Both the position numbers and the translations under genes were made by a program. Below, piece by piece: positions 19,802 through 26,121 of a DNA stretch of 64,000 nt; position 1 is the stretch's first letter, and every line of letters begins with the position of its first letter. The notes beneath the pieces are model-generated. The model was not told the origin of the DNA. It ran no database searches and saw only the letters and a list, made by a program, of their open reading frames with translations. Location: NCBI GenBank assembly GCA_041659045.1, contig JBAZZB010000001.1:390111-454110 (forward strand), read 5' to 3'. The stretch is from Patescibacteria group bacterium. Lineage in GTDB: Bacteria; Patescibacteriota; Patescibacteriia; SG8-24; DYFX01.

Positions 19802-19835
19802 GCAAAGACCCACCACTTTCGTGATGGGTCTTTGA
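19802..19835. repeat. 34-nt direct repeat caaaGacccaccactttcgtgatgggtctttgat; a hairpin-forming, terminator-like element. A second copy lies at 26088-26121, just inside the tRNA-proximal boundary.
   Basis: Direct comparison; on the minus strand it reads as a hairpin plus T-run. Confidence 0.55.
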
Positions 19836-19837
19836 TT

Positions 19838-20197
19838 TTACGGAAGCACGATTGGTTTTCCTGTGCCAAGACTTGCACCACCCTGCTCCTGATAGCAGAT
19901 GCGCATTTTTGGGCCATGTACACCAAACCAACAAATACTTTCGACCACGGCTTGTTCCTCACCTGCTGGACATGCAGGTGCAGCGACCTTCAAAGGGTTG
20001 AGGTATTCGCTGGGAAGACACGGCCGCACAATCCTCCAGTCATCCATAATGTCGTAGAGTAGAGCCTTCTCAAAAGCGCCCCGCTCAGATTTTACATGTG
20101 GCCAGCTCACCACATATGGATATGCAAAACCACAGACAAGGATTGTTGCCAAAACGGCGAGTAAAGCGCGAGGATTAATTTTTTGATCGAGCTTCAT
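19838..20197 (-). CDS. Hypothetical small secreted Cys-containing protein.
   Basis: Start MKLDQKINPRALLAVLATILVCGFA (signal-like); 6 Cys; no known motif. Confidence 0.4.
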   Translation of the reverse strand: MKLDQKINPRALLAVLATILVCGFAYPYVVSWPHVKSERGAFEKALLYDIMDDWRIVRPCLPSEYLNPLKVAAPACPAGEEQAVVESICWFGVHGPKMRICYQEQGGASLGTGKPIVLP

Positions 20198-20290
20198 ATC
20201 AAGTCTAGTTTTGAGTTTATGATACCATATAAATAAAGAAGAGCGCGGCCACACATGCGGCCGCGCCGAGTCGATGGACTAGCACACAGG

Positions 20291-23326: not shown

Positions 23327-23348
23327 CTGATCAGCGCTATCGCAGAAA

Positions 23349-26036
23349 TCACCGATTATACTTTTGCCTCTTTTGGTCGTAGGTATCGTTGCCGCCCTCC
23401 AGATACGTGATCACCTCGTCGCGGACATCGGAGAGGTTGATGGAGCCCGTCACTACGACACGTCCGGCCTTGGCCGTGGCCTCCATGATCGTGAATTGGT
23501 CGCTATCAGAAGCGACCGCAACAGAGGAGTTGTGGGTAGTGAAAATGAATTGCCTCCGCTCCTTGGTGTCACGAAGTTTTTTACACATGTCCTCCCAGAT
23601 CGATTTCAAGTCCAACGAATCTTCGGGTTGGTCAATGATGATTGGGAAGCGGCCGTCGCTGAGAGCAATAATCAACAAGGCTGTGGCCTTCTGCCCGACA
23701 GAAAGCTCCTCCAGCGGCTTGTACTCAGCCCCGACCCTGTAATTGATGACCGGGACATCCTTCGGCGCGGAAGTATAGAGTAGAGAAAGCAGCGTTTCGT
23801 ATGTATGTTCCTCAAGAAGGTGCTCGGCAAGCTTTTCAAGATTCTCGATCGTCAGGCCGGTTTTTGTAGCCAAATCTGATAGGGTCTCTTTTTGTGACCG
23901 GCCGGACCACTCGTATCTGAGTAGGGCATCAACAAAGTCCTTAGGATCGGCAGTGCCGGTCATCTTCTCGATGTCCTCATCTTTGAGCCACGACCCCTTT
24001 TTAAGTTTCAGCAAATTATTTTTGAAATCGCTTTTATCTTCCCGCGCCTTCATCGACACGCGCAAGGCATCGGCAGAATTTCCCGAAAAGAAATCACACC
24101 GGCCCTGGCGGTCTTCAAAGTAACTCAGCCGTGCGGCTTCAATCAGAGAGATCAGATCTGCCCTCCTTGCAGCCGTCGTCTTCATTTGCTGAGCGCGTGT
24201 TTCAAATTTGGCGAGCTCCTTTTCAAGGAGCGAGAGTGCGATGTTCAGCTTGTTTCGTTTTTGATCCAAGGCGATCTGGTCCCCACCGCTCTCCTTCACT
24301 GTTTTGTCGTATTCCGCCTTCACCGGGACGAACAGTGCATGCCAGTCATCGTATTCCTTTTTAAGAGCAGTACGCCTCGTACCAAGCATGGTCTGTGCCT
24401 CCTGATATTTATCTTTCAGGGATTTGATGGCGTCGGTCGTGATGTCTTGAGAACGCTTGAAGGCCGGATCATTTTCTGTATCAGCGTCGCTCGGCGTCGG
24501 CGCAGCAATCCCTTCAAGCCGCGAAAGCGCCTGCTGTGTTGACTTCTCAAGCTCGCCAAGAAAGACGATCTGTCCTGAAATAGCTAGACCGACTTTTTCT
24601 TTTTTGGAATAGCTAGCAAAGACGCTGTTCGTGATCTGCCGACCAAGTTTTTCAATTTCCTCTTTGTGCGCCGCAATTTGTTTTTTGATCTTCGTTGCGG
24701 AAAGGTGGGACCGTAGCGCGTCTGCGAAAACAGTATCCGTCTCAGTGAGATCGCCCGTCAGCCGCTCAATCTCCCTCTGGTGGTGCCGAAAATCGAAAAA
24801 TTTGTCGATGAATTCCCTCTGATTTCCGCCGGACCTATCTTCTGCGATTTTAACAACCTCGTTCTGGCTCAAGAACAGTACGGCAAAAAGTTCCTCAATC
24901 GGAAATTCTTTTTTAGAACCATCGGAAGCGTCGACAATCTCGATCGGGTGACTCTCACTGGGGTTCCAGGTTCTTTTGATGGTGTATCTCTTCCCAGATT
25001 CATCCACCACATCAACCTCTACGTAACCGTAAACCTTGAGACATTTTTCCAATTTAGAACGGTGATCGGCAGCCAGGTCTTGTTGGCTCGGTTCTTGGTT
25101 CAAGGCAAAACGCAGGAACTCGATCGTGAGTGACTTGCCGCTGCCCTTGGGTCCCAGGATGTTGTTCAGCCCTTCGTGGAAAAAGAACTCCTGCCCATCC
25201 AAAAAACCGCCCGTGACTTTCAGCCGCTCAATCCTAGGATAAAGCTGCTCCTTATACTCAAATGACTGCCTGATCCGAGTATCCCTATCGATAAGTGCCT
25301 GTCGAAGATCCTCGATGGTGATTGGGGTGTCAGCTTTAAAATGCGTGTACGAATCTCCAATGGTAGCTACCGAGTGAGAATCTGAGCTTTGATACACCCC
25401 GAGTTTCCGGTGTGAGAAATTTGGGTCCGTGCCATCGAGCAGGTCGATAACGCGCTTGTGCTGCTTTTTCTTTTCCTCATCCAAAAAATTCGACTCATTC
25501 GCCTCAGCGCCCAACAGACATTTCCTCGGTGCCTTAAAAATCAACGACCTCGTTTCGCCGTGGATGCTCCCAAGGACGCCTTTTGAGGAGTGGCAGTGGG
25601 CCATCGTCACGATGGCAGTCGGGTCGTAGCCTTCTAGCGCGTCGACAATTTGCCCAACGGTGCATTCGACGGCGGGCTGAACTTTCCCGTCTTTCTGATA
25701 AAGCTTTATCGTATTCAGGAACTGGTTGATGTGGTTTGTGTCCTTATCAACGTCAAACAACAAAATCAAATGCACACCACCCTCACCGCCCGTGGCGCAA
25801 AGCTCAACCCCTGGGAAGACGACCAGTTCGGTCCCGCGTGCCGCTTCCTTCATGCGATCCACCCATTCCGCCGTCTGGTGATCGGTGACGGCGATCGCTG
25901 CAAGGCCTTTGCCGAGCGCGGCATCGACAAGCATTTTTGGGGTGGTAGCACCCTTGTTGTCGGTGAAGTCCTCCGAGGCAGGAGTATGAACGTGGAGATC
26001 GAATTTTTTGAATTTTAGACCGTGTTTTGATCCCAT
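23349..26036 (-). CDS. Single-chain fusion protein, 895 aa. N-terminal PHP (polymerase/histidinol-phosphatase) phosphoesterase domain is joined to an SMC/Rad50/SbcC-type ABC ATPase (Walker A, ~350-aa coiled-coil insert, signature, Walker B, D-loop, H-loop). Candidate defence / DNA-processing protein.
   Basis: FDLHVHTPASEDF and AVTDHQT (PHP metal ligands). GPKGSGKSLT (Walker A). LSVGQKATALL (signature). IIIDQPEDSLD (Walker B/D-loop). FTTHNSS (H-loop). Confidence 0.7.
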   Translation of the reverse strand: MGSKHGLKFKKFDLHVHTPASEDFTDNKGATTPKMLVDAALGKGLAAIAVTDHQTAEWVDRMKEAARGTELVVFPGVELCATGGEGGVHLILLFDVDKDTNHINQFLNTIKLYQKDGKVQPAVECTVGQIVDALEGYDPTAIVTMAHCHSSKGVLGSIHGETRSLIFKAPRKCLLGAEANESNFLDEEKKKQHKRVIDLLDGTDPNFSHRKLGVYQSSDSHSVATIGDSYTHFKADTPITIEDLRQALIDRDTRIRQSFEYKEQLYPRIERLKVTGGFLDGQEFFFHEGLNNILGPKGSGKSLTIEFLRFALNQEPSQQDLAADHRSKLEKCLKVYGYVEVDVVDESGKRYTIKRTWNPSESHPIEIVDASDGSKKEFPIEELFAVLFLSQNEVVKIAEDRSGGNQREFIDKFFDFRHHQREIERLTGDLTETDTVFADALRSHLSATKIKKQIAAHKEEIEKLGRQITNSVFASYSKKEKVGLAISGQIVFLGELEKSTQQALSRLEGIAAPTPSDADTENDPAFKRSQDITTDAIKSLKDKYQEAQTMLGTRRTALKKEYDDWHALFVPVKAEYDKTVKESGGDQIALDQKRNKLNIALSLLEKELAKFETRAQQMKTTAARRADLISLIEAARLSYFEDRQGRCDFFSGNSADALRVSMKAREDKSDFKNNLLKLKKGSWLKDEDIEKMTGTADPKDFVDALLRYEWSGRSQKETLSDLATKTGLTIENLEKLAEHLLEEHTYETLLSLLYTSAPKDVPVINYRVGAEYKPLEELSVGQKATALLIIALSDGRFPIIIDQPEDSLDLKSIWEDMCKKLRDTKERRQFIFTTHNSSVAVASDSDQFTIMEATAKAGRVVVTGSINLSDVRDEVITYLEGGNDTYDQKRQKYNR

Positions 26037-26087
26037 ATGGTTTTTGTCGCCGTCACCTTAGCACGGAAGGTTATTCAATGAAAATGA

Positions 26088-26121
26088 CAAAAACCCACCA
26101 CTTTCGTGATGGGTCTTTGAT
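26088..26121. repeat. Copy of the 34-nt hairpin repeat (see 19802-19835). On the minus strand it acts as a terminator-like hairpin + TTTTTGT about 30 nt 3' of tRNA-Asn.
   Basis: caaaAacccaccactttcgtgatgggtctttgat. Confidence 0.55.

Follow-up and report, generated by a model that had tools for sequence, protein, structure and literature searches.

The locus described here raises the question of how the terminator-like hairpin that follows a tRNA-Asn gene came to be present twice in the DNA of a member of the Patescibacteria. It lies within a stretch of 64,000 nucleotides, hereafter the window, that corresponds to positions 390,111 to 454,110 of contig JBAZZB010000001.1 (GenBank assembly GCA_041659045.1). 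A first-pass annotation of this DNA had recorded the repeat and had taken it to imply nested or tandem insertions. The reading preferred here, to which a probability of roughly 65% is assigned, is that the duplicated terminator marks modules that were inserted successively at a hotspot in the trailer of the tRNA-Asn gene, in a tandem layout, and that were later joined. Coordinates refer to the window unless a related locus, designated by L and a number, is named.

The duplicated trailer hairpin

The two copies of the hairpin are as follows.

26081–26121, minus strand: F′, the trailer terminator hairpin proximal to the tRNA, with a stem at 26088–26119, a GAAA loop, and then a U-run
19796–19836, minus strand: F, the same hairpin in the distal position, abutting the stop codon of a 138-residue open reading frame (ORF) and 48 nt past a duplicated NUDIX terminator, from which spacer E separates it

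The repeat, CAAA[G/A]ACCCACCACTTTCGTGATGGGTCTTTGAT, is identical at 33 of 34 positions between 19803–19836 (F) and 26088–26121 (F′); the first copy thus begins one base beyond the position reported earlier (19802). A core of 29 nt is exact, and these are its sole two matches in the window when up to three mismatches are allowed. None of 100 shuffled controls for this core gave any match. The similarity widens to 41 nt at 90% identity (19796–19836 and 26081–26121), with a spacing of 6285 nt. On the minus strand each copy folds into a 14-bp stem with a GAAA loop, the fold z-scores for the two being −5.4 and −5.9, and both are called terminator-like, which bears out the earlier description of the repeat as hairpin-forming and as a terminator for the minus-strand tRNA. 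The features of an intrinsic terminator, namely a stable G+C-containing stem-loop and a U-run located downstream of a gene, are observed for F′ after the tRNA and for F after the 138-residue ORF. Within the tRNA-Asn trailer, F is the predicted intrinsic terminator. Read-through from tRNA-Asn on the minus strand would be halted by F′ before the promoter region of the TrlF-like gene described below, and the transcript of a 301-residue ORF and the 138-residue ORF would be halted by F, because the stop codon of the latter ends one base ahead of the hairpin. Judging from its duplication, F may also be part of a recombination site. A search of the trailer hairpins against Rfam returned no family match other than tRNA, and the other terminators of the window (T1 and those at 12660, 16130, and 18847) are unrelated to F in sequence.

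The adjacent "aagcacg" bases, which had also been reported to match, do not extend the repeat: on the right flanks of F and F′ they are offset by 6 nt, they lie within the last codons of the 138-residue ORF, and the local alignment has a p value of 0.28. A decayed tRNA remnant to the right of F was considered and rejected, the similarity of this flank to the tRNA or to the neighboring hairpin C′ not being significant.

The hairpin is confined to one kind of locus. The pattern ACCCACCACTTTCGTGAYGGGTCTTTG was scanned against one genome per species (185,579 species) and 241 million metagenome records. Four contigs matched among the former and one record among the latter, all of them at tRNA-Asn loci or on the NUDIX side of such loci. 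F is therefore locus-specific in the collections scanned and is not a generic terminator. The relatives compared were few and mostly short contigs, and the window was the sole stretch of its source genome examined. L004 displays the order F–C–tRNA-Asn with the same right-hand neighbor gene as the window, and in L006 F lies directly against tRNA-Asn. L005, considered below, contains two copies. L007, from the same metagenome-assembled genome as L006, contains NUDIX, one gene, F, and TGGCTCCG, followed by an insert, and L008 contains F and the 3′ 40 nt of tRNA-Asn, again followed by an insert. In L001, whose NUDIX protein is 80% identical to that of the window, F is positioned ∼10 nt past the NUDIX terminator, and therefore the order NUDIX–T1–F is a native chromosomal junction, as is A′–E–F in the window. 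Locus content varies among the relatives; L002, for example, has one gene between NUDIX and the tRNA.

One composite unit, eroded at its distal sites

Between F′ and the tRNA lies a second hairpin, a copy of which is likewise found at a distance.

26154–26228, minus strand: tRNA-Asn (GTT)
26120–26159, minus strand: C′, the second trailer hairpin, between F′ and the tRNA, with a 12-bp stem and a GCGA loop on the minus strand, overlapping the last 6 nt of the tRNA
17977–18030, minus strand: distal C unit, consisting of the C hairpin, TGGCTC (the tRNA 3′ end), and a degenerate tRNA-like stretch, and forming the left boundary of the amidase cassette

The outer pair of 33-mers noted in the first-pass annotation is indeed present at 17984–18016 and 26127–26159, with a spacing of 8143 nt. 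It had been read, together with the 34-mers, as a tRNA flank duplicated twice. F′ and C′ are located directly downstream of the tRNA-Asn 3′ end, and a multiple alignment reveals two forms of the trailer: a short one, with F directly against the tRNA (L001 and L006–L008), and a long one, in which the ∼34-nt hairpin C intervenes (the window, L004, L005, L009–L012, and L016). In L005, from Candidatus Uhrbacteria, the entire assembly of F, C, and the tRNA 3′ end (∼80 nt) is directly repeated, the copies lying 1603 nt apart on either side of one multicopper-oxidase gene. In L016, a 44-nt exact stretch, within a longer and diverged F–C–tRNA-end unit, flanks a copy of module D, described below.

Because relatives duplicate F, C, and the tRNA 3′ end as a whole, the F and C repeat pairs are two halves of one tRNA trailer unit, each matching a different and partly eroded distal unit. 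The tRNA-proximal unit of the window (F′–C′) is complete. One distal site, at 17984–18016, keeps the C half together with TGGCTC of the tRNA, and the other, at 19803–19836, keeps only the F half and thus only trailer. The derivation of the repeats from insertions at the tRNA flank is supported.

Across loci, the hairpin variants (n = 13) carry compensatory changes at 8 of 12 stem pairs with constant CAAA...TTTG flanks, the behavior expected of a selected terminator or recombination-site structure. Two of the trailer hairpins are flipped between genomes. Hairpin C at 7721–7756 of L004 has a TCGC loop as compared with GCGA at 26120–26153 of the window, with both asymmetric stem positions swapped, and a hairpin designated F* has a GAAA loop at 1677–1698 of L013 and a TTTC loop at 13558–13579 of L011. 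These differences suggest that the hairpin was inverted and not changed by point mutation.

Two modules that occur independently

The DNA between the trailer copies consists of two modules.

18017–19582: module D, the mobile amidase cassette, with Amidase_6 at 18144–18833 (plus strand) and a 197-residue membrane-anchored protein at 18889–19482 (minus strand)
19837–26080: module G, between F and F′–C′–tRNA
19838–20254, minus strand: 138-residue ORF of G
20291–21196, minus strand: 301-residue ORF of G
21237–21776, plus strand: 179-residue ORF of G
22022–23326, plus strand: large serine recombinase of G, 434 residues
23349–26036, minus strand: TrlF/Ppl-like PHP-SMC ATPase of G, 895 residues

The D region (17984–19582) is 94% identical to 1712–3312 of L013, where it follows a Zeta-toxin cassette, and 72% identical to 9851–11422 of L016, where its immediate neighbors are tRNA-Asn, Big_5, RpoD, and DnaG and where both recombinase and ATPase are missing. 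All three copies have the same left junction, C-TGGCTC|CAGGTAGCGATTCCCACT, and the distal C unit of the window thus recurs at this boundary in L013 and L016. The recombinase module, in turn, is found beside tRNA-Asn without the amidase segment in four relatives (L009–L012). D and G are thus independent modules, each found without the other in relatives, and the expectation that the two segments would occur separately in related genomes was borne out. What G has in common with its relatives is only the block formed by the 179-residue ORF and the recombinase (21182–23289), which in L009, a complete 1.17-Mb genome of the candidate phyla radiation (CPR), is 85% identical at the nucleotide level and 92–93% identical at the protein level.

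The ATPase of module G gives a full-length match to the TrlF model NF045780 TrlF_fam_ATP (387 bits against a cut-off of 350) and weaker matches to models of Ppl (1.7e-42 in PADLOC; 183 bits against a cut-off of 1000 in NCBIfam). On these profile matches the product resembles the anti-phage protein Ppl and is a putative TrlF/Ppl-like defense ATPase.

A serine recombinase family at tRNA flanks

The recombinase of module G scores above the cut-offs for PF00239, PF07508, and PF13408 (Resolvase, Recombinase, and zinc ribbon). Its translation displays an N-terminal YARKSS motif, and its best similarity in NCBIfam is to CcrB. A scan of 30 ORFs of the window detected no tyrosine recombinase, and the serine recombinase is the sole recombinase found in the region. 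In L009/L010, L011, and L012 the recombinase gene points at the hairpin–C–tRNA-Asn end. The slot between its stop codon and the trailer hairpin accommodates different cargo: the TrlF/Ppl-like ATPase gene in the window (23349–26036), Gabija GajA/GajB in L009 (11339–15324), a 1264-residue protein in L011 (9711–13505), and nothing in L012 (11305–11306), where the stop codon abuts the hairpin. ParB-methylase and terminase-like genes lie upstream of the recombinase in L009–L012 and in L081.

More distant members of the family in IMG/VR (L019–L078, ∼50% identity) have a tRNA gene 0.1–4.7 kb downstream in 20 of 60 cases. All 20 tRNAs (Ser, Gln, Glu, Asp, Arg, or Trp) are convergent with the recombinase. 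In the most closely spaced of these, 120–190 nt separate the recombinase from the tRNA, and a terminator hairpin of the form ACAAAAA...TTTTTGT, sometimes accompanied by more hairpins, lies between the two. The recombinase family is thus associated with tRNA 3′ flanks, so that the serine recombinase is the leading candidate for the enzyme inserting at the trailer. Six of the IMG/VR contigs hold two recombinase copies. A literature search returned nothing specific on serine recombinases of the Patescibacteria at tRNA genes, nor on TrlF.

The junction between the modules

The left flank of the locus contains a repeat, 146 nt long at 99% identity, that the first-pass annotation had missed.

17276–17863, plus strand: NUDIX gene (isopentenyl-diphosphate-isomerase-like, or IDI-like), the chromosomal left flank of the hotspot
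17746–17891, plus strand: repeat A, the last 118 nt of the NUDIX coding sequence plus terminator T1
17902–17912: ATCAAAAACCC, an 11-nt match ∼10 nt past T1, where F sits in L001
19587–19607, plus strand: motif x, GGTACCTGGTACCAAAGGGAC, the promoter-side motif of the gene for the 197-residue protein, its right edge forming the breakpoint with A′
19608–19753, plus strand: repeat A′, a second NUDIX 3′ end plus T1 without the upstream part of the gene, identical to A at 145 of 146 positions

On the plus strand the order is NUDIX–T1, spacer B, distal C unit, module D, x, A′, spacer E, F, module G, F′, C′, and tRNA-Asn, to the right of which the Big_5 surface protein, RpoD, and DnaG belong to the core chromosome. 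Spacer B (85 nt, between T1 and the distal C unit) begins with the 11-nt match at 17902–17912, and spacer E (42 nt) lies between A′ and F. From its position and sequence, the 11-nt stretch is probably a remnant of the left arm of an F-type hairpin. The two repeats are followed by unrelated spacers: A by ∼10 nt and then the F remnant, as in L001, and A′ by E, behind which F lies. In its first bases E is similar to what follows the terminator in L003 and L007. On these comparisons the A and A′ junctions look like two alleles of one NUDIX-to-trailer junction set in tandem. The breakpoint between x and A′ (19607|19608) is sharp, the joined sequences sharing ∼4 nt (CGAC). Modules D and G are thus joined at a junction that is not an attachment (att) site and that carries a 146-nt NUDIX duplication, which means that clean site-specific integration does not account for every step.

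Motif x is near-palindromic and occurs five times in the window, always on the plus strand (12621–12641, 15395–15415, 16086–16106, 17066–17086, and 19587–19607), ∼20 nt past a terminator hairpin and 70–140 nt upstream of a gene on the minus strand. A role as promoter or operator is probable. Its identification as an att site or transposon end was rejected on account of the five copies tied to terminators and minus-strand genes. It is further countered by the ends of D, which are not inverted repeats, and by the similarity, which does not reach beyond 30 nt. The x–A′ segment was also considered as a decayed second NUDIX locus and rejected, the neighboring 232-residue and 197-residue proteins being unrelated. 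The motif is observed as well at 6604–6624 of L001, 1629–1649 of L003, and 5650–5670 of L013, and in inverted orientation near 3335 of L013.

A leader of ∼180 nt upstream of the NUDIX/IDI-like gene (17096–17275 of the window, 4264–4457 of L001, 9820–10000 of L002, ∼700–815 of L003, and 2715–2860 of L007) is 78–88% identical at the nucleotide level and exceeds the coding sequence in conservation. Its predicted fold combines a long-range helix with a terminator-like hairpin downstream of it, which carries a T-run (17238–17263). No Rfam match was found at E ≤ 1, and the leader is a candidate riboswitch or attenuator.

Proposed successive insertion at the trailer

In the preferred reading the trailer, comprising hairpin F, frequently hairpin C as well, and the terminal ∼8 nt of the tRNA, would serve as an insertion hotspot in these Patescibacteria. 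With each insertion a module would enter between the old trailer and the tRNA, leaving two trailer copies, one beside the tRNA and one at the module's distal end. G would thereby have come to lie between F and F′–C′–tRNA, with F still joined to the copied chromosomal flank (NUDIX 3′ end, T1, and spacer E), and D would have retained a distal unit of its own (C plus TGGCTC) at 17977–18030. The serine recombinase, or a relative acting in trans, may have catalyzed these insertions. D and G would have entered the hotspot in two different haplotypes, and one recombination at x|A′ would have merged them and duplicated 146 nt of NUDIX. The merging event may have been homology-anchored with an illegitimate end, or of the Campbell type through the 146-nt homology. 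The layout itself is tandem, with two modules, rather than that of an inner element within an outer one.

Several observations weigh against this reading. L009, the 93%-identical relative, has one trailer hairpin only and no second within 15 kb, and neither direct repeats nor second trailer-hairpin copies were found in the IMG/VR recombinase loci, so the 34-nt repeat is not the usual footprint of this recombinase. G lacks the ParB-methylase and terminase genes that its relatives have upstream of the recombinase, and so it is a remnant. The distal hairpin at 19803–19836 has a hybrid look in the multiple alignment, its left side (AGCAAAG) being that of short-form units and its right side (TTTGAT) that of long-form units, which suggests an extra, later recombination between units. 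Further, distal F lacks the TGGCTCCG tRNA remnant seen after the distal copies in L001, L005, L007, L013, and L016, and its right flank has no significant similarity to the tRNA or C′, leaving no exact crossover marked for G.

Alternative explanations

The alternative that survives best, although we consider it unlikely, is a single canonical integration of G by the serine recombinase, with crossover in or just beyond hairpin F and with F and F′ as attL and attR. The recombinase is the only one found in the region, its family adjoins tRNA 3′ flanks, its stop codon abuts the hairpin in L012, and F, an imperfect palindrome, matches a serine-integrase site in size. Serine-integrase sites normally share only a short core, however; the repeat in the window extends over 34–41 nt, and L009 has no second hairpin copy within 15 kb. 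Half-site symmetry was not found beyond the hairpin, the right flanks bear no relation to each other, and F′ is not the reciprocal of the hybrid F.

In the nested arrangement that had been proposed earlier, an 8.1-kb outer element bounded by C and C′ was invaded by a 6.3-kb inner element bounded by F and F′. The geometry of both repeat pairs fits, and a plausible empty site, NUDIX–T1–B–C–tRNA, would be regenerated if C and C′ recombined. Such nesting is nevertheless improbable. F′ and C′ adjoin as halves of one unit, and it is the whole of this unit that is duplicated in relatives. The part unique to the supposed outer element, D, is self-contained, and in L016 it is bounded by full units and abuts the tRNA. 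The outer element would, moreover, have to hold the host NUDIX 3′ end, its terminator, and the trailer hairpin (A′–E–F), which constitute chromosomal flank and not element DNA, and in the relatives D and G are seen only separately. Of the two arrangements originally put forward, then, tandem modules stand and nesting does not.

Little credence is likewise given to the notion that no insertion-made duplication took place and that F and F′ belong to a family of terminators and are each original to the transcription unit in which they lie. Both copies do lie where terminators are expected, after the tRNA and after the 138-residue ORF, and hairpins with the same flanks and different stems occupy every cassette boundary in relatives. 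Yet F and F′ agree over 29 exact nucleotides and at 33 of 34 positions overall, loop included, whereas the other terminators of the window are unrelated to them; in all collections scanned F is restricted to the tRNA-Asn/NUDIX locus, and the copy at 19803–19836 is attached to a duplicated chromosomal flank.

Finally, an assembly artifact, in which D-bearing and G-bearing strain haplotypes were concatenated through the 146-nt sequence, would suit an uncultured Patescibacteria population and two NUDIX-to-hairpin junctions that look allelic, but it is highly improbable, given that the sequences joined at x|A′ have only ∼4 nt (CGAC) in common, an overlap from which a k-mer graph could not make the junction without spanning reads.

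Cassette arrays in relatives

In several relatives the trailer-type unit, consisting of a hairpin, TGGCTCCG, and a tRNA-like arm, is repeated in arrays. L001 contains five units of ∼64 nt (5084–12535), each formed by a variable hairpin followed by TGCTGGCTCCG and then CGTCGTGGAGGATGTTAGAAC, with cassettes of 0.6–3.7 kb between them. Neither the window nor the viral contigs contain the class-I cassette end CGTCGTGGAGGATGTTAGAAC. L013 has at least three units (732–5724), and L016 has four (3885–11657), its cassettes being a type I restriction-modification system, a 198-residue gene, and D. A RibD_C–SET cassette, 89% identical between L001 and L013, begins exactly at the unit in both and has different neighbors. 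The array cassettes encode an ice-binding-like protein, RibD_C plus SET, a Zeta toxin, type I restriction-modification, and the amidase cassette, and no recombinase is annotated within the arrays in the precomputed Pfam lists of L001, L013, and L016. Within one cassette of L001 (7082–9063) there is an internal tandem duplication of ∼1.14 kb, its segments being 81–90% identical.

A broader and doubtful proposal, offered tentatively, is that the trailer unit (terminator hairpin, tRNA-Asn 3′ end, and optionally hairpin C) might be the recombination site of an undescribed cassette-capture system of the Patescibacteria. Serine recombinases that target tRNA flanks, in cis or in trans, would stack small recombinase-less cassettes into integron-like arrays behind tRNA-Asn, and the palindromic sites would be usable either way, which would explain the flipped C and F* hairpins. 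The cargo of such a system would comprise surface proteins, toxins, restriction-modification systems, and defense ATPases.

Relation to known systems

Islands at the asn tRNA genes of enterobacteria are an example of island arrays at tRNA genes. Tandem genomic-island (GI) arrays at tRNA genes are a known class, handled as "tandem GI arrays" by the TIGER/Islander tools, and both the arrays and islands of the serine- and tyrosine-integrase types are discussed in the same paper (PMC9580842). The present locus resembles them in its position on the 3′ side of a tRNA gene, in direct repeats drawn from the tRNA end or flank, in stacked modules each with a distal repeat, in content that differs between relatives, and in encoding an integrase, namely the large serine recombinase at 22022–23326. 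It differs in that the repeat is nearly all trailer (terminator hairpins) with 0–8 nt of tRNA, in the lack of a tyrosine integrase, in its CPR host, and in that many modules of the relatives are single-gene cassettes of 0.6–1.6 kb without a recombinase. The event is of a known kind, tandem islands at a tRNA gene, here in an unusual lineage and with a serine recombinase.

With the elements and prophages of large serine recombinases (phiC31, Bxb1, A118, and SCCmec Ccr) the locus shares the Resolvase, Recombinase, and zinc-ribbon architecture, a recombinase gene at the end of the element facing the attachment site, and accessory or defense cargo near att. Unlike in those systems, the target is a tRNA 3′ flank and not a protein-coding gene, the repeat exceeds the typical serine-integrase core, and the copy in the window lacks the phage-like genes of its relatives. 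The slot between recombinase and hairpin, occupied by TrlF/Ppl-like, Gabija, or no cargo, recalls the defense hotspots beside integrase and att in prophages and satellites; here, by comparison, the element is a CPR serine-recombinase element and the defense role of the cargo is predicted.

Similarities to integron arrays include the small cassettes of the relatives, which share one orientation, with imperfect palindromes between them whose flanks are conserved and whose stems vary in a compensating manner, and the occurrence of the same cassette with different neighbors. The locus does not, however, qualify as an integron. Neither an IntI-type tyrosine recombinase nor a Phage_integrase match was found among the window ORFs scanned or in the Pfam lists of L001, L013, and L016. 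Inspection of the aligned units revealed no R″/L″/L′/R′ boxes and no GTTRRRY core, the conserved flank being TGGCTCCG plus the tRNA-like stretch. The site, moreover, includes a mimic of the tRNA 3′ end, the cassettes have promoter-side motifs of their own, and the hairpin is at the same time a predicted terminator.

Significance

The mobile elements and genome plasticity of the CPR/Patescibacteria are poorly characterized, and the locus described here is a concrete hotspot that can be compared across genomes. At the tRNA-Asn trailer, defense genes (TrlF/Ppl-like, Gabija, type I restriction-modification, and Zeta toxin) and genes for secreted proteins are swapped as discrete cassettes. Use of tRNA 3′ ends as targets is usually linked to tyrosine integrases, and a family of serine recombinases located beside tRNA 3′ ends has now been identified. 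If the recombinase does not build the arrays, the locus would be an ordinary tandem island at a tRNA gene; if it does, the arrays would represent integron-like gene capture by a different enzyme at a different site.

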